Part shown: positions 17,474 through 43,847 of the stretch, one piece after another | Numbering within the stretch: the stretch's first letter is position 1 | Layout of the letters: each line of letters starts with the position of its first letter | Assembly (NCBI GenBank): GCA_964439155.1 | Contig: CAYTNJ010000002.1 | Span: 1-43,847, forward strand | Reading direction: 5' to 3' | Length of the DNA: 43,847 nucleotides | Source of the DNA: an uncultured Candidatus Peribacteria bacterium | Lineage (GTDB): Bacteria; Patescibacteriota; Gracilibacteria; Peribacterales; Peribacteraceae | Notes under the pieces: model-generated | Seen by the model: the letters and a program-made list of their open reading frames with translations, nothing else | Told to the model about the DNA's origin: nothing | Database searches by the model: none | Position numbers and translations under genes: made by a program

Positions 17474-17679
17474 TATTTGAACCTTTCATAACATTGTGAA
17501 TCAACCATCGCTTGCTGGATGATGGCAACGATCTGCTTATGCGTGAACACCTTCACCTCGCACCTGCTGTGGCTGCTCGTGCCGGTGGTGACGGGCGGAA
17601 ACTTCACCGCCAGCAACGCCTTCATGACCGCCTCGCGGTCCTGTTCGTTTATCGGTCTGTCCAGTCCATAACCAATCAT
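17473..17679 (-). CDS. Hypothetical protein (68 aa)
   Basis: Internal ATG giving an ATGA overlap with the helicase stop. Confidence 0.55.
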   Translation of the reverse strand: MIGYGLDRPINEQDREAVMKALLAVKFPPVTTGTSSHSRCEVKVFTHKQIVAIIQQAMVDSQCYERFK

Positions 17680-19175
17680 AGCAACGCCTCCTCGCGTCGT
17701 TTTTGCTGCAGGTGGATATTCCCGCAATTGCATTTATAGGGTTCGAGGTCGATGAACCGATTCCGCTTTTTCGCCACCACGGCCGATTTCACCGCCGACT
17801 GCCAGTTGGTATAACGGTTTTTCTTTCCGCACGGCCCTGCCTTGTATGCGGCCTCTGCCGCTTTCTCTTTCTCGATCTCGGCTTTGCGTTCAGTGCGTGC
17901 CGCGGACTTTTCAGCCTTCGCAGCTGCGGCCGCCTCCTTCGCGATGCGCTTCAACTCGCCCTCCATGAAGAACATGGGGCGGTCCTTCACCTCGCGGACC
18001 AGCTGGCAGTTCGGGCATGCGGCCGACGGTCGGAAGACCGCAAAGCAGCCGGGGCATTGCGTGATCGCGACGGTGGTACCGGACTCAATGATGCGCTTCG
18101 GAGGCGCCTCGAGCGACCACACGATCACGTCGTCGGGGAAGCCGTGGCGCGTCCAGTTACCGCAATGGTCGAGGATGATGGCGATCTTGCCGGCCGCCCA
18201 GCGCAGCACGCGGCCCCATTGCTGTTTGCAGAGGATCAGAGACTTGGTGGGGCGCGCCATGATCATCGCCTCGATAGTCACGTCGAAGCCTGCGATGGCG
18301 GAAAGGTCGAAGCCCTCCCCGAACAGGTCCACGTTGAAAAGCACAAGGATCTCGCGGCGCGCGAACGCCTGCACGATGGCCCTGCGCACGTCGGGGTCGG
18401 TGGTCCCGTCGATGTGGGCCGCCGGTACCCCTGCGTCGGTGAACGCCTGCGCATAAGCCTTGCTGGCCTTCACGGTGGGCGCGAAGCCGACGGTCAGCTT
18501 GCCGCCCGCGTGCTTGAACCAATGGCCCACCACGTTGCCGACGAGGGCCTTGCCGAGCATGATTTTCTCGGTCTGGTCTGCGCTGTATTCGCCGCCGACG
18601 CTGCGCACGGTCGATAGGTCAGGCACGTCGGGGCCGTAGTATTCGAAGCGGGACAGGTACTCGTTATCGATAAGCCACGGCACGGTGGGGCCGTGAATCA
18701 TTTTCGTGTAATAGGCCCCGAGGCTTTTCCCGCCCGGCATGATGGGCGTGCCTGACAGGCCGAGGTGCCATTCGGCGTGGTTGTAAACCTTCTGCCATGA
18801 TGCCGCGCCGGTGTGCTGCCCTTCATCGAGAGCGATCAAATACGGCTTCGGCAACTCCTCCAGCATGTTGACGGCCGTCGGGATACTGACGATCTGGATC
18901 AGTTCGTCGGGGTTGCAATGTTTGCCCGCTGCGATGATGCCGAACGGCAGCCCTTCATCCCTGAACGTGTTGGCGGTACCATCGACCAGCTCCGCGCGGT
19001 GGACCCCGAACCAGCTGGGCCGGTTCCTCTCGCGCAGAGCCATGAAGATGTTGGTGGATAGGACCGTCTTGCCGCTGCCGGTCGGGCTTTCGATGATCAC
19101 GTTCTTATGACCCTCGCGCCACGCCTGCCGCGTTTCGTTAATCGTGGTGTGCTGGTACGGTCGAAGCGGCCGCAT
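17676..19175 (-). CDS. SF2 DEAD/DEAH-box helicase with C-terminal zinc ribbon
   Basis: ESPTGSGKT (motif I) and LDEGQH (motif II), with later helicase C motifs. CPGC...CPNC ribbon. Trimmed to MRPLRPYQH, which overlaps the upstream stop (TAATG). Confidence 0.85.
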   Translation of the reverse strand: MRPLRPYQHTTINETRQAWREGHKNVIIESPTGSGKTVLSTNIFMALRERNRPSWFGVHRAELVDGTANTFRDEGLPFGIIAAGKHCNPDELIQIVSIPTAVNMLEELPKPYLIALDEGQHTGAASWQKVYNHAEWHLGLSGTPIMPGGKSLGAYYTKMIHGPTVPWLIDNEYLSRFEYYGPDVPDLSTVRSVGGEYSADQTEKIMLGKALVGNVVGHWFKHAGGKLTVGFAPTVKASKAYAQAFTDAGVPAAHIDGTTDPDVRRAIVQAFARREILVLFNVDLFGEGFDLSAIAGFDVTIEAMIMARPTKSLILCKQQWGRVLRWAAGKIAIILDHCGNWTRHGFPDDVIVWSLEAPPKRIIESGTTVAITQCPGCFAVFRPSAACPNCQLVREVKDRPMFFMEGELKRIAKEAAAAAKAEKSAARTERKAEIEKEKAAEAAYKAGPCGKKNRYTNWQSAVKSAVVAKKRNRFIDLEPYKCNCGNIHLQQKRREEALL

Positions 19176-19690
19176 TACAGGTATAACGCCACGACGAGGC
19201 CCATCAGGCCGCCAGATACCCACTCTCGCGCGGTACCGTTCAGGAGCATGTAGCAGGCAGGCCACAGCAGGGCCAGCAGCGCGCCGTATGGCAACAGGAA
19301 CGCGCCGATCCACGCGCCCTTGATGCCCATGAAGATCCAGCAGTATTCGAGGCTGCCTAGCGGCCATCCCCGCTTTTCACAGATGGAGTCAACGATGTTT
19401 GACAAGAACTGCTTTCGTCCTGCGGCCGCCTGTGCGGGATCCAGCACCGTGCCGTGGCCGGTGTTGAAGGCAAAGAACGTGCTCACGGCCGCGAGCGCGC
19501 CCAGCATCAGGCCGTGGTGCCAGCCGACGGCCGCGCCTGTGATCAGCCCGAACGCGATCTCGGAAAGTATGGTCAGATCAAACGGCATGACTCCGCCGTC
19601 TTTTTTCGCCTGCAGGTGTTTCGCCCAGAGGCCGCCCCCGGCGGCGCGCGCGAGGCATGCGAATAGAGCGATAAAAAAAATGTAAGTCAT
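19175..19690 (-). CDS. Polytopic inner-membrane protein (171 aa)
   Basis: At least four hydrophobic helices (YIFFIALFACLA, ILSEIAFGLITGAAVGW, LMLGALAAVSTFFAF, AWIGAFLLPYGALLALLWPACYML, GGLMGLVVALYL). Confidence 0.7.
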   Translation of the reverse strand: MTYIFFIALFACLARAAGGGLWAKHLQAKKDGGVMPFDLTILSEIAFGLITGAAVGWHHGLMLGALAAVSTFFAFNTGHGTVLDPAQAAAGRKQFLSNIVDSICEKRGWPLGSLEYCWIFMGIKGAWIGAFLLPYGALLALLWPACYMLLNGTAREWVSGGLMGLVVALYL

Positions 19691-20632: not shown

Positions 20633-21003
20633 GTTTTCTCCCTGTGTGATGCTCTGACGACTCCGCGCTTGGTAAAAACGCAAAGAGGGTCCTGACCCGC
20701 CTTATAATCGCGGCAAAGCTGCGGCCGGTTTTCATAGATGGTGCAACGGCCGTCGTCGCCCAGCTTCGGGCAGGTGAAGGAATAATTGCCGTATTTCCTG
20801 CCTTCTGCGGTCTCGAAAACCTGCAGCACCTCTAGTGGTTCAAAAGGCAGACCGGCGACCTTCATATAAGCGCGTGCTGCGTCGGGTCCTTCATCCAGCC
20901 AGAATGTAACCTGCTCTGTCCCAGCGCCGTCGTTACGCGGCGCGCTAATCTGCATCTTTTTGCAGCAGTTGCCGGGCTTCGGACATTTATCGCACCAGCT
21001 CAT
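20629..21003 (-). CDS. YkgJ-family cysteine-cluster (CxxCxxCC) protein
   Basis: CDKCPKPGNCCKK ... CPKLGDDGRCTIYENRPQLCRDY matches the zinc/iron-chelating UPF0153 pattern. ATGA overlap upstream. Confidence 0.65.
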   Translation of the reverse strand: MSWCDKCPKPGNCCKKMQISAPRNDGAGTEQVTFWLDEGPDAARAYMKVAGLPFEPLEVLQVFETAEGRKYGNYSFTCPKLGDDGRCTIYENRPQLCRDYKAGQDPLCVFTKRGVVRASHREKT

Positions 21004-21662
21004 GCCTCGTCCCCGCATTCGCCGCAGGTCAGTTTGGCATCGGTGCAGGCCGAGCAAGGTGGCGAGATATGGCACCGGCAATCGCCGTCCAGTACCACCC
21101 TATAAAATCCCTGACACCCGGAGGATAGACACCGGTCACCTTCCTCCGTCGGCCGAGGCGCTTGGGCAGGCGGATGGCACGTCGGGCATGCCATCGCCCC
21201 CGCGCTGGGCTCTCCACTATAGTCCGTGATCACGCCTTCGCCCTTGCACGTTTCGCATTTCGGCGGCTGCAGGAATTCAGGGATATCGAGTTCATCTACG
21301 CCGCACATCGGGCAAACCGCCAGCACCGATGAATATACGCCCCGGCATGCGCTGCATACTTTCGCCTGCTCCAGCGGGCCGCGATCAGTCAGCGGTGCAA
21401 AGTTCACCTCGACCTTTACGTTGTCGGCCGAAGTCTCGGTGTACCGGTCTGTCAAAACCTCCAGCGCGGACTCGATGCTGGAAAGCTGACCTTCGATCTC
21501 GCGTATGGCATCGATCTGGTTATCGGCCCACGCTTTGAAGTGCGGATCATTATTGCGCTTTTTACACTCGATCAGTGCCTCTAGGCGGCGGCGCATGTGC
21601 AGCGCAAAATTCGCCCGCAGCTGCTCGGCGGTCTTTTCCAAATATTTAATTGCGTACTGCAT
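21000..21662 (-). CDS. Cys-rich protein with DnaJ-type CxxCxGxG finger
   Basis: N-terminal helical region, then CSAC, CPMC, CETCKGEG, CPTC, CSAC and CGEC pairs. Confidence 0.65.
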   Translation of the reverse strand: MQYAIKYLEKTAEQLRANFALHMRRRLEALIECKKRNNDPHFKAWADNQIDAIREIEGQLSSIESALEVLTDRYTETSADNVKVEVNFAPLTDRGPLEQAKVCSACRGVYSSVLAVCPMCGVDELDIPEFLQPPKCETCKGEGVITDYSGEPSAGAMACPTCHPPAQAPRPTEEGDRCLSSGCQGFYRVVLDGDCRCHISPPCSACTDAKLTCGECGDEA

Positions 21663-21671
21663 GGCGGATCC

Positions 21672-22400
21672 TTATTTTTGCGGGTTTAAATCTCTTAGAA
21701 TTGCGTAACCGATCACTTCGGGGATTTGCGGGACGACCGAGTTTCCGAGGGCTTTAAGTGCAGGTGCTGGGGGGGGTAGCCCATCACTTTTGCGGTGAAG
21801 TCTGCACTCGGGTAAATTGGTTCTTCCGGGCCATTCCTCAAAAACTCCCTGTAATTGCTGCGATAGGTCGGACTGCCAAAGTATCGGCCCTTTGTACACC
21901 CCTTGTAATCGCTCGCTGCGGGGGTCGGCATATATCCAGACGCGGTCCCGTTCATGCCAGGCACCAACGTAGGAAGCCGGTATGCAATGCCACTCCGCGT
22001 CATACCCGAGCGAGGCCAAGGCCCCGAGAACCGTGCCAAGCCCTCGAGTAAGCAACCCTGCCACGTTCTCCAGCAATGCGCGTGGCCGTCCCACCATGCA
22101 AAGGGTTCGTAAGATGTACCAGAAAAGCCCTGAACGGCTGCCGGTAATTCCGGCACCTTCTCCAGCGTGTGAAATGTCCTGACAGGGGAAACCCGCCGTA
22201 ACCAAGTCCACATGCGATTCAAATTTGAGATTGGTAACATCTTCGATTATCTCCACTTCAGGCCAGTTTTTTTTCAGGACACTTTTGCAAAACTTATCAA
22301 TCTCGCAGAAGGCCACCGTCTCGAATCCGTCGGTGCGCTCAAGGCCAAGGCTGATTCCACCTATGCCGCTAAAAAGGTCGAGGACCTTTAATTTTTCCAT
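21672..22400 (-). CDS. DNA (cytosine-5) methyltransferase, short form (242 aa); frame integrity is questionable, see findings
   Basis: DLFSGIGG (motif I), GFPCQDIS (IV), ENV (VI), GAWHERDRVW (VIII-like) and LGNSVVPQ (X). A canonical motif IX string is absent from this frame but present in a nested frame. Confidence 0.8.
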   Translation of the reverse strand: MEKLKVLDLFSGIGGISLGLERTDGFETVAFCEIDKFCKSVLKKNWPEVEIIEDVTNLKFESHVDLVTAGFPCQDISHAGEGAGITGSRSGLFWYILRTLCMVGRPRALLENVAGLLTRGLGTVLGALASLGYDAEWHCIPASYVGAWHERDRVWIYADPRSERLQGVYKGPILWQSDLSQQLQGVFEEWPGRTNLPECRLHRKSDGLPPPAPALKALGNSVVPQIPEVIGYAILRDLNPQK

Positions 22401-22416
22401 TTTAAAATTCCGAAGT

Positions 22417-25140
22417 TTAAAGCAGCAGCCCGTCCGGTCTGAATTTTTCGGACGGTATAATAACTTGATTGGCGGTCGTCGCGCCAAACCTGACCAGTTT
22501 TTTAGGCTCGTTCCATTTGATTCCCTCCGCGTTGATGATTGCCTTGGCCCAGTTCGTGGCCCAAATAGTCTCCTTCAAAATGCGGCTGATGTGCATCGAC
22601 GGCCGCCGTATATAAACAAACTCCTGCGTCGTTTTAATATCGACGTTCAGCAGCGCGGCGCGCGCGTCCTGCTGGGTGTAATCCATATCCACGTATCCAA
22701 GCGCGACCTGTATCACGGTGCCGATTTGCGCCTCGTGACGCTGGCCCTTGAACGACTGCAGCACCGGTATCGTGGAGCTCATGAGGCGGTCGTACAGGCG
22801 GTCGTGGTCAGCGGCTTCGCCCACGGCCGTATGCAGCGTCCAGTCATGTTTGCGGATCCACTCCTCCGCCTCCTTCACGCTGATCTCCTTCGGGCTGTGC
22901 AGGCTATACACGCCCGCCAGCATCGGCCCGATCTGATCCGCCGCGCGCCGGTCGCGCAGAACCGTGGCGGCCGCGTCCGTGAACGTCTCGGAATTTTTCA
23001 TGATAACTTTGATATTGCTGACCGTGCGCGCGAGCAGCTGGCGCGCATATTTTTCCGTCAACGTCTCTTTGGCGAACGCCTTGAGGTCCTGAAACTGCTG
23101 CTCGGCATCAGGCGCGCGGTTTCGGCGCAGGTATAGCATCGACACCCGGCTTTCATCCGCCCGCTGCTTAATTGACGGGTTGATGGATGCGAAGGCGAAC
23201 ATGGAGCGCACCGAGTAAACGACGCCCTGACCGTCCTGCGATCCCTTGGCGATGCGGTCGCCCGACGATGATTTGCGGGCGAGCATCAGGATCTGCTGCA
23301 CGTTGATATCGTCGCGCTGGTTCTCGGTTTCCATTTCATCGAGCACCACCGGCCGCCCGTCCCATTGCAGCAGCTGGCGGATAGCGGGCTCCGTGGTACC
23401 TCCTGACAGGCGCAGGCAGATGATATCGATCATCGGCATCATGACCTTATTCAGCACGAACGATTTACCGGCCTGCGACTCGCCCGTCACCCAGATATGC
23501 GGCCGCCAGTCGAGCGCGGCGCAAAGCGGTGCCATCACCAGCCAGCCCGCCAGCAGCGTCCCTGACAGGGGATTTTCCCAAGTTGGCGCCTCGCAGATTT
23601 TGCGCAGCTTCACCGCCTCGATGCTCTCCAGCGGTTCGGGGTCGATCTCGAATATCTTCTCGGCCGCCTGATAAACATAGCGGCTGCCGATCATGAAGGG
23701 GTCCATAGGCTTGCCGTCAACCAGCAGCCTGTCGCCGCAATGTATCACCACCCGCCCTTCATCGATCCACACCCCCGCGCCCCTGATCATCGATTCCGGT
23801 TTAAAGATGCCGATTTTTTGCGACGTCTGCAGGAGCGCGTTCACGGCATAATCCCAGTCCACGTCTTTACCGCGGTCTTTTTTGAACCCCTCTTCCCACC
23901 ACGCCTTGGGGGCCAGCTCGTACAAATTGTTTTTGGTATGCCCGCCGGGGGTCAGCGCGACCATCTGCTTGCTGCCTCGCGGCAGGTAATAATATTGGCC
24001 CATATTGTGGCCCATGATCTTGAACGGCCCGTTCTCGACGGGCTCCGCCAAATTGTCTGGGTCATAGTGCGGCACCATACCCGACAAATCCTCTGGCGGG
24101 GGCGGGTTGTCGTTATCGTAGGGTATTTCGGGTTCTGGCTCCTTCAGGAGCAGCGCGCGGACGGCATCTAGGCCCTGCTGCGCTTCGAGATCATTAAAAT
24201 CGGTTGGGCGGGAGGCGACGTTGTCAAACTTCGGAGGAACGACACGCACCTTCCCGCCCAGCCTTTTCGAGACAGCTTCCGCCGCCTCAATTCCCGGGTT
24301 CCACAATAAACCCGATTCCCGCCATTCTTTCCAGCGCGGATCGTCGCCGGCAGGTAGCAGGACCAGGTCGGGGGGCCTTTTCCCCGACCGAAAAACCCAA
24401 TTATCAAAATCGGCGCATATGATATCGCCCTCTTCCGCGACCGCCTTCAGGTTGCCCGAGTCAAAGGCCACCCGAACCTCCCAGCCTGTCGCGCGGTGGA
24501 TCGTCCCGCCGGTCGCATAGCCCTCGCAGACGGCCCGCCCGCCGGTGCCGGGGATGGTGAAGAACGCGCCCTTCTTCTCCCCGCCGGTCAAAAACTTCTT
24601 TTCGCCCTTTTCGCTAATAAACTGGATGGTGCTGATGCCCTTCGGGTCGAGCGCGGGGATCATCAACAGGTTATGCAGGACGCGGAGGCCGTATGATGGC
24701 ACCCCCTTGCGCGCCAGATAGGGGTGCTGGAGCGCGTCTGTCCCCCGCGCCCACAGACGTTCCGCCTTATCGCGGGCCGCCTTTGCGCGCGCCTTGGCCT
24801 CGGCCTGCGCCACCTTCCGCCGTTCCTCGATTTTGGCTTTCAGGGCCTCGCGCTCCGTCGCCGTCATATTGGCCGACTTGGAATGCCACTTATGGAGAAC
24901 GCCGTCTTTGTAGGATTTCCACCACCCGAACGCGAACGCGCCCTCTATGGCCAGCTGGTACTCGCCGTTCAGCTTCGACCGGCTGTCGCCCAGAATATGG
25001 AACCGTCGCCGCCGGTCGTCCGCCTCGATGGGCGTATCCGTTGCGCTGCCCGCATCGGCCATCGCCGTGCGAAATTCGTCAATTAGGTCTGTCAATGGGG
25101 TATCTCCGAAGTCTGGATTCCAAGCTACCGTTCGACTCAC
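22417..25140 (-). CDS. DNA primase (TOPRIM) fused to a P-loop NTPase/helicase-like domain
   Basis: VCEGYATGGT and ICADFDNW are TOPRIM acidic motifs. Later come Walker A GESQAGKS and Walker B VVLDEME. GTG start after a G6 SD-like run. Confidence 0.8.
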   Translation of the reverse strand: MSRTVAWNPDFGDTPLTDLIDEFRTAMADAGSATDTPIEADDRRRRFHILGDSRSKLNGEYQLAIEGAFAFGWWKSYKDGVLHKWHSKSANMTATEREALKAKIEERRKVAQAEAKARAKAARDKAERLWARGTDALQHPYLARKGVPSYGLRVLHNLLMIPALDPKGISTIQFISEKGEKKFLTGGEKKGAFFTIPGTGGRAVCEGYATGGTIHRATGWEVRVAFDSGNLKAVAEEGDIICADFDNWVFRSGKRPPDLVLLPAGDDPRWKEWRESGLLWNPGIEAAEAVSKRLGGKVRVVPPKFDNVASRPTDFNDLEAQQGLDAVRALLLKEPEPEIPYDNDNPPPPEDLSGMVPHYDPDNLAEPVENGPFKIMGHNMGQYYYLPRGSKQMVALTPGGHTKNNLYELAPKAWWEEGFKKDRGKDVDWDYAVNALLQTSQKIGIFKPESMIRGAGVWIDEGRVVIHCGDRLLVDGKPMDPFMIGSRYVYQAAEKIFEIDPEPLESIEAVKLRKICEAPTWENPLSGTLLAGWLVMAPLCAALDWRPHIWVTGESQAGKSFVLNKVMMPMIDIICLRLSGGTTEPAIRQLLQWDGRPVVLDEMETENQRDDINVQQILMLARKSSSGDRIAKGSQDGQGVVYSVRSMFAFASINPSIKQRADESRVSMLYLRRNRAPDAEQQFQDLKAFAKETLTEKYARQLLARTVSNIKVIMKNSETFTDAAATVLRDRRAADQIGPMLAGVYSLHSPKEISVKEAEEWIRKHDWTLHTAVGEAADHDRLYDRLMSSTIPVLQSFKGQRHEAQIGTVIQVALGYVDMDYTQQDARAALLNVDIKTTQEFVYIRRPSMHISRILKETIWATNWAKAIINAEGIKWNEPKKLVRFGATTANQVIIPSEKFRPDGLLL

Positions 25141-43623: not shown

Positions 43624-43847
43624 TGTTCCTCCTCGGCGGTGGTGGCGGCAAACAGGCAAATCAGGCCCCAGCGGCCTCCGGTTTGCAGATCCAGACCTCG
43701 GCTTATGGCAAGGTTATCCCCATCGTCGTGGGGGCCATGCGCACCCCCCCCAACCTGCTCTGGTATGGGGACTTCTCGGCCACGGCCCACCGGAACCAGT
43801 CAGGCGGTAAAGGCGGCGTAGGGGGCGGCGGCGGGGGCAAGAACGGC
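43623..43847 (+). CDS. Host-specificity protein, N-terminal 75 codons (continues at window position 117 after circularisation)
   Basis: TAATG overlap with the peptidase stop. The sequence from 43732 on repeats window positions 1..116. Confidence 0.85.
   Translation, partial: MFLLGGGGGKQANQAPAASGLQIQTSAYGKVIPIVVGAMRTPPNLLWYGDFSATAHRNQSGGKGGVGGGGGGKNG
43732..43847. repeat. 116-nt terminal overlap with window positions 1..116 (5 mismatches)
   Basis: Base-by-base comparison gives mismatches at window positions 12, 25, 34, 71 and 95, corresponding to 43743, 43756, 43765, 43802 and 43826. There are no indels. Confidence 0.9.

Follow-up and report, generated by a model that had tools for sequence, protein, structure and literature searches.

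The gene at 21672..22400 on the minus strand of the window (the whole 43,847-nucleotide stretch of DNA analysed here) raises the question of how many proteins are read from it and what they do. The gene is annotated as encoding a C5 cytosine methyltransferase, and its open reading frame translates to a protein of 242 residues (alpha). A second frame on the same strand, +1 relative to alpha and wholly within the alpha gene, is open over 21713..22240 and would specify a 175-residue product (beta), the proposed small subunit. A sequence-only reading of the locus had pointed to this second frame, and its translation is exactly as quoted there; the three homopolymer tracts that it named are likewise present. 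These are an A8 tract (22267..22274, minus strand), which spans alpha codons 43–45 (KKN) upstream of the beta start, a C5 tract (21920..21924, coding strand) and a C8 tract (21769..21776, minus strand; G8 on the plus strand). The C8 tract is read as LPPP in alpha and YPPQ in beta and sits where beta motif IX adjoins alpha motif X. The DNA is also AT-richer, as had been claimed: the methylase gene has 53% GC compared to 59% for the window, and a local dip is seen in the composition profile. Between the C5 and C8 tracts, our GC3 counts (29/47 for the nested and 24/47 for the annotated frame) were essentially those obtained earlier by hand, and the annotated frame indeed uses TTA (three times), CTA (twice), ATA, AGA (twice) and GGA (twice) there. 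Feature coordinates given below for the gene pair refer to the minus strand.

The alpha protein contains the features of a C5 methyltransferase large domain, FxGxG of motif I, PCQ of motif IV, ENV of motif VI and RxR of motif VIII. Motif I (FSGIGG, residues 10–15; 22356..22373) is located upstream of the overlap with beta and falls in invariant alignment columns. It is followed by motif IV (GFPCQ, residues 70–74; 22179..22193), the DNA of which encodes RVSPVRT of beta in the +1 frame, by motif VI (ENV, residues 111–113; 22062..22070), in which E111, N112 and V113 are invariant, and by motif VIII (RDRVWI, residues 151–156; 21933..21950), in which R151 and R153 are invariant. A 57-residue spacer (residues 161–217; 21750..21920), which overlaps the C-terminal module of beta, then leads to motif X (GNSVVPQ, residues 219–225; 21726..21746), where G219, N220 and P224 are invariant or nearly so. 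Nearly all of the motif X DNA is contained in the beta ORF, which extends to 21713, and in the beta frame it encodes the C-terminal tail ...ETRSSRK.

Searches with alpha against Pfam identified PF00145 (E = 1.6e-38) over residues 4–162, a match that covers the N-terminal half of the profile only (positions 1–164 of 324). Motif IX was undetected in alpha, in agreement with the earlier statement that it is missing from the annotated frame. The AF2 model of alpha is confident at residues 1–160 and 220–240, and pLDDT values are mostly below about 50 at residues 161–217. Foldseek matched the model to the catalytic large domain of M.HhaI, M.HaeIII and DNMT1/2 with a probability of 1.0, and superposition on M.HhaI and M.HaeIII gave 27–30% identity over about 165 columns. 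As modelled, alpha appears to be without a structured small domain.

The beta ORF starts with an ATG at 22238..22240, and a GGAG Shine-Dalgarno-like core (22251..22254) is located 10 nt upstream of it. The motif WPRSGM (residues 75–80; 22001..22018) forms the invariant core of the beta family; P76, R77, S78, G79 and M80 are invariant, and the motif is present in every layout that we examined. The C-terminal module (residues 103–160; 21761..21934), the most strongly and independently constrained segment of the protein, contains the sequence PTP (21920..21928), within which the C5 tract falls, and the motif IX-like string DFTAKVMGYP (21773..21802).

Is this second frame open by chance? The +1 frame has a stop-free run of 177 codons, compared to an average of 90 (sd 22) after alpha-synonymous codon shuffling, and a run of 177 codons was reached in 0.1% of 20,000 shuffles that preserve the alpha protein (P = 0.001). 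In the same shuffles the stop-free run of the +2 frame was ordinary (P = 0.42). The 175-residue beta product also has relatives, with 135 matches in a collection of 5.8 billion proteins, the best at 69% identity (E = 3e-76), and when 1.84 billion representatives were searched, a beta-family profile recovered 19,898 clusters (E ≤ 1e-3). Against PHROGs, beta matched phrog_1008, 'DNA methyltransferase' (E = 1.6e-13), and alpha was assigned to phrog_363, which is labelled DNA methyltransferase. With the nested peptide as query, tblastn gave matches in Bacteroides, Paenibacillus and Stenotrophomonas phages with E values down to 5e-14, and each case that we examined was the +1 frame of an annotated methylase-like gene. 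We also assembled 163 loci that encode alpha homologues (80 each from IMG/VR and from GTDB genomes of many phyla, and 3 from phages); in 155 of these, a four-sequence beta profile matched a long ORF that lies in the +1 frame within the alpha gene. Thus, the two checks that had been proposed for the nested frame, significant database matches and an open frame in homologues, both gave positive results.

Megablast of the region against GenBank phages detected no close relative, a blastn search of 5,426 E. coli genomes with the window gene gave no DNA match, and a plasmid search returned copies only in Bacteroides and Acinetobacter (Bacteroides fragilis and Acinetobacter baumannii). A gene of the window type, with beta nested in it, was seen in a P22-like Salmonella phage (L174:504-1238) and on four E. 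coli chromosomes (H101–H104), and the RefSeq annotation of these E. coli copies is solely 'DNA cytosine methyltransferase'. The one record, among those that we examined, that lists the nested ORF as a gene of its own is Paenibacillus phage Lily (KP296792.1); its LILY_63, a homologous nested +1 ORF inside a homologous methylase gene, carries the annotation 'g62 internal gene'. The Lily record calls LILY_63 a hypothetical protein only and proposes no function or subunit role, in contrast to the role that we propose for beta of the window. Strings such as DSPARIS and SPAKTS in beta-family proteins (P0379, P0334, P0290 and P0188), and likewise SPARTS in the family, are the +1 reading of alpha GFPCQD(F/I)S, and beta N-termini that resemble SAASA..LNEPECEPS appear, from a hand back-translation, to correspond to LFSGIGG..GLERAG. 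Many database 'hypothetical proteins' would therefore be products of the +1 frame of methylase genes.

Overlapping genes can conserve one another passively, and we therefore scored each frame after shuffling that kept the protein of the other. The +1-frame beta score averaged 67 bits for the real loci versus 11 bits (sd about 8) in alpha-preserving shuffles, and in 151 of 159 loci none of the 100 shuffles reached the real score; as a control, the +2 frame averaged -6 bits. When the test was run by region and in both directions on 124 loci, the alpha core (motifs IV–VIII) scored 101 bits compared to 27 bits in shuffles that keep beta, and the N-terminal part of beta scored 55 bits compared to 15 bits in shuffles that keep alpha. 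The contrast was sharpest for the C-terminal part of beta (residues 103–160), at 37 bits versus 1.2 bits, with the real value above every shuffle in 121 of 124 loci. The alpha spacer (residues 161–217) scored 21 bits versus 11 bits under beta-synonymous shuffles (median z 2.4), and these values bear out the earlier impression that the nested frame is the more protein-like of the two between the tracts. The constraint is reciprocal, with alpha dominant over motifs IV–VIII and beta dominant between motifs VIII and X. Thus, the regional scores in both directions show that both frames are selected and that the dominant frame switches at about motif VIII. Taken with the database matches, these comparisons indicate that the nested frame is a conserved protein under purifying selection of its own and not a chance ORF. 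Of the explanations offered in the sequence-only reading, an overprinted gene or dual-product methylase is the one supported by the matches, the 155 of 163 loci and the shuffle tests. The alpha spacer, weakly constrained on its own, may do more than link domains.

Compensating sequencing errors were another of these explanations. If the C5 tract were one base too long and the C8 tract one base too short, the record would mask a single-chain methylase that passes from the alpha frame to the beta frame and back to the alpha frame. The two tracts do flank the segment to be exchanged, and the resulting chimera shows the canonical motif order, motifs I–VIII, then the PTP/MGYP module, then motif X. 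Yet it is the annotated frame, and not the chimera, that aligns with homologues across the 48-codon stretch among the best matches of the chimera search in the 5.8-billion-protein collection, the homologue consensus there being ...ADP...R..G....PIL.Q..LS....R.FE.WPGR.NLP..R....DG.P....L.A.GNAVVPQIPE. Indeed, the annotated frame alone, the subject of a further proposed check, aligned with homologues from end to end. DNA alignment with the three closest genes recovered (L170, L171 and L004) was collinear and gap-free at every tract, and beta conservation continues past the C8 tract, where its tail (...LKPSETRSSRKSPK) resembles those of homologues. The two-frame layout, moreover, recurs in 155 independent loci. 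For window-type genes, no phage record joins the module to motif X over such a junction: tblastn matches to the C-terminal part of the chimera all ended at the junction, and at that sensitivity no phage record had the exchanged segment and motif X in one frame. The alignment of the annotated frame with homologues and the gap-free tracts therefore exclude sequencing errors and a spliced chimera, an explanation to which we attach practically no likelihood.

If both frames are read as they stand, how might beta relate to the enzyme? The AF2 model of beta was moderately confident (mean pLDDT 69), with a β-sheet region at residues 43–88 and a C-terminal module (residues 110–160) at a pLDDT of about 87. 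Foldseek found no fold match for this model in the PDB (best E about 1), and a beta profile searched against PDB sequences gave chance matches only (glycolipid transfer protein, E = 0.05). Pfam searches detected no PF00145 signal in the nested frame, and in them the annotated frame and the chimera were indistinguishable; motif IX was recognised in neither beta nor the chimera. Short constructs that combine motifs IX and X of the window's own sequences were without a Pfam match, and an artificial construct made from generic-consensus motifs IX and X gave a weak one (E = 0.023). The string F.A/E..MGYP in beta resembles motif IX, with no significant match in the profile, fold or Pfam searches.

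Support for its position is provided by mycobacteriophage Peaches (NC_013694.1; L172:477-1572), in which the frames are arranged differently. Peaches gp77 corresponds to alpha as far as motif VIII, after which it stops. The +1 ORF that overlaps it, gp76, contains a beta-like module, FPTSGMTRSG...LLPTP...FSEWMMGWEEGWVT (quoted also as FPTSGMTRSG...LLPTP...FSEWMMGW..GWVT), and continues in frame into motif X, IIGNGVVVQQ. Because the Peaches module is in frame with motif X, the C-terminal module of beta would occupy the slot of the target-recognition region and motif IX. The earlier identification of AKVMGYP as motif IX therefore holds with respect to position, directly before motif X in Peaches, and finds no echo in recognition by PDB profile, fold or Pfam searches. 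Likewise, the idea that the nested frame supplies motif IX to the enzyme is upheld for the slot; the frameshift splicing by which it was to be delivered is not, and we propose delivery as a separate polypeptide in trans. Two further observations concern the mycobacteriophages. The annotated start of gp76 (locus position 988) is downstream of the conserved FPTSGMTRSG and may be too late, and about 215 mycobacteriophage records match the beta C-terminal consensus, and in many of these the match covers two neighbouring genes called 'DNA methylase'.

There is a precedent for a C5 methylase made of two polypeptides. M.EcoHK31I of E. coli HK31, which was reportedly described by Lee, Kam and Shaw in 1995, is said to comprise an alpha chain of 309 residues that contains the target-recognition domain and a beta chain of about 176 residues. 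The beta chain of the window is 175 residues long, close to that reported size, and alpha of the window, at 242 residues and with a 57-residue low-confidence spacer, differs from the reportedly larger alpha with its recognition domain. In the passages of two papers that describe M.EcoHK31I, beta is encoded entirely within the alpha gene in a different frame, alpha contains motifs I–VIII and X together with the recognition domain, beta contains motif IX, and both chains are needed (PMC2836561; PMC3404938). The window shows the same described architecture, by which we liken the two: its beta is nested entirely within alpha on the same strand in another frame, and its alpha has motifs I–VIII and X, with motif IX undetected. 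Unlike M.EcoHK31I beta, however, beta of the window appears to supply the recognition region too. A further difference is that M.EcoHK31I is part of a restriction-modification system, whereas the window gene is an orphan in a phage replication module.

In M.AquI, as described in a passage of one of these papers, alpha ends after motif VIII and the second chain has motifs IX and X (PMC3404938). M.AquI, which we liken by layout only, and Peaches gp77/gp76 share with the window a C5 methylase split over overlapping frames, the Peaches +1 ORF being the beta-like module. Motif X, however, belongs to the second chain in M.AquI and Peaches and to the alpha frame in the window, and thus the M.AquI type of split was found in Peaches and not in the window. 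The monomeric enzymes M.HhaI and M.HaeIII have the same motif order as alpha of the window (I, IV, VI, VIII, X), but are single chains in which the target-recognition domain and motif IX lie in frame between motifs VIII and X. We know of no nested gene in either. A literature search for a family-wide description of nested methylase genes found none.

We favor, with a probability of roughly 0.8, the interpretation that alpha and beta are the two polypeptides of an overprinted C5 methylase of the M.EcoHK31I type. According to this model, one stretch of DNA would encode two proteins that jointly make up one C5 cytosine methyltransferase. Alpha would provide the catalytic large domain with motifs I–VIII, a poorly structured spacer and the motif X helix. 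Beta, read in the +1 frame from the ATG at 22240 with GGAG upstream and ending at 21713, would supply through its C-terminal part (WPRSGM...PTP...DFTAKVMGYP) the target-recognition region and motif IX that are wanting in alpha. The two chains would then assemble in trans, as has been demonstrated by experiment for M.EcoHK31I, into a heterodimer for whose activity beta would be needed.

A second layout bears on the link between beta and the enzyme. Motif I runs in frame into beta in 48 of 261 beta-like proteins, and in relatives with this fusion motifs IV–X are intact in the -1 frame. The motif I–beta fusions thus tie beta physically to the enzyme. Examples are L164:2501-3145, L168:1501-2346 and L169:1501-2349, where alpha motif I (about 55 residues) is in frame with beta and the alpha remainder, GFPCQ...ENV...RDR...GNxVVPQ, is intact in the -1 frame. 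The alpha remainder has its own ATG in L168 and L169. In L164 it follows directly after a TAA with no start codon, beside a G5 run (GCGGGGGAT), and the exact product of the L164 ORF occurs on 18 contigs. This layout may reflect either another natural way of splitting the enzyme or a -1 frameshift site.

Alternatively, beta may be a real protein that acts outside the methylase, as a regulator or an anti-defence factor, with alpha alone as the complete enzyme. All catalytic motifs are contained in alpha, and no similarity of beta to solved methylases was detected in sequence or fold, both of which would fit this alternative. We nevertheless consider it unlikely. Beta co-occurs with alpha in nearly all family members (155/163), some layouts fuse it to motif I and others to motif X, and the alpha model is without a structured small domain. 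The precedent also points the other way, as a passage on M.EcoHK31I describes its alpha alone as inactive (PMC2836561).

A different possibility is that beta is not initiated independently and that programmed ribosomal frameshifting from alpha into beta yields a trans-frame fusion, either of motif I and beta or of the alpha–beta–alpha type. That motif I fused in frame to beta constitutes the main ORF in many relatives, and that the alpha remainder of L164 is without a start codon, would be in keeping with it. In the window, however, stops interrupt the +1 frame at about alpha codons 41 and 52, just ahead of the beta ATG, and a shift could work only after codon 52. The A8 tract was considered as a route to such a fusion and rejected, as a stop in the +1 frame separates A8 from the beta ATG. 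We saw no conserved slippery site. Beta, moreover, has its own ATG and GGAG, and signals of this kind are enriched family-wide: Shine-Dalgarno-like cores precede 26% of candidate beta starts in homologues versus 9.7% of control ATG/GTG sites, and at the start position used in the window (17 codons before PCQ) the count was 6 of 8. Close homologues of beta that have been called as proteins begin at the same Met as beta of the window. We thus regard frameshifting as very unlikely, and beta is probably read from its own ATG at 22240.

The tracts had also suggested a phase-variable methylase, in which slippage at C8 or A8 would switch the enzyme off or alter its subunit make-up. G/C runs of 8 are rare in the family (2 of 164 genes), and the C8 tract is positioned exactly between beta motif IX and alpha motif X. 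By direct reading, a C9 tract would truncate alpha to ...LPPPSTCT followed by a stop and join beta in frame to motif X, which is the Peaches-type layout; we take this as a curiosity and do not count it as evidence. Against this, C8 and A8 are absent from the three closest relatives, and C5 is merely the codons CCG ACC CCC of the invariant P-T-P of beta. Further G/C runs of at least 8 occur elsewhere in the window, and there are probably too few phage generations per host to expect classical contingency loci. A repeat tract that is conserved or length-variable among relatives, as in contingency loci, was thus not found here. Phase variation is therefore unsupported by the sequence comparison, since the tracts are not conserved in relatives, and the slippage-controlled enzyme proposed earlier seems to us quite unlikely. 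Separately, G/C homopolymers are found near both ends of the 43.8-kb record (C10 at 11-20, G8 at 90-97 and C8 at 43744-43751) and may represent terminal or packaging-related sequence or an assembly artefact.

Genes for a DNA primase (22417..25140) and a helicase (17676..19367) are found in the neighbourhood of the methylase gene, and no nuclease was seen among the ORFs examined. Because the gene lies in a phage replication module without a nuclease partner, we infer that its product is most likely an orphan methylase that protects phage DNA. Two ORFs in the vicinity were noted. Directly downstream, a 220-residue ORF (21000-21662, minus strand) is CxxC-rich (CSAC, CPMC, CETC, CPTC, CSAC and CGEC) and zinc ribbon-like, with only weak matches to PHROGs of unknown function. 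A 303-residue ORF (22225-23136, plus strand), which runs antisense to the primase gene and also covers the 5' end of the methylase gene in antisense, is probably a chance ORF of GC-rich DNA.

Passages in the literature describe the M.EcoHK31I arrangement as one of two exceptions among characterised C5 methylases. The sequence collections searched here indicate that the family is far larger than this status suggests and that the nested subunit is unannotated in the window and in almost all relatives. Gene callers discard nested ORFs on the same strand, and therefore the second subunit is missing from the window record and from nearly every relative that we examined. We tentatively suggest, as a broader possibility that may well prove wrong, that the M.EcoHK31I arrangement is the tip of a very large and almost unannotated phage and prophage superfamily. 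Its +1-frame beta would begin to overprint alpha at motif IV, or even at motif I, and would either stop shortly before motif X or continue across it. The three layouts seen, a nested beta as in the window, a beta with motifs IX and X as in Peaches, and a motif I–beta fusion with motifs IV–X in the -1 frame, might be interconvertible by single-base indels, with the C8 tract marking a conversion point, and beta, not alpha, might be the target-recognition subunit.

Among prokaryotic genes with long dual coding on the same strand, the family is one of the largest and deepest cases, and its measurable reciprocal constraint makes it useful as a test bed for the evolution of overprinted genes. If beta is required, a clone in which the +1 frame is disturbed, for example by codon optimisation, would yield an inactive enzyme, and predictions of specificity that consider only alpha would be wrong. 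For many phages and prophages, both products would then be needed to assign methylomes to genes.
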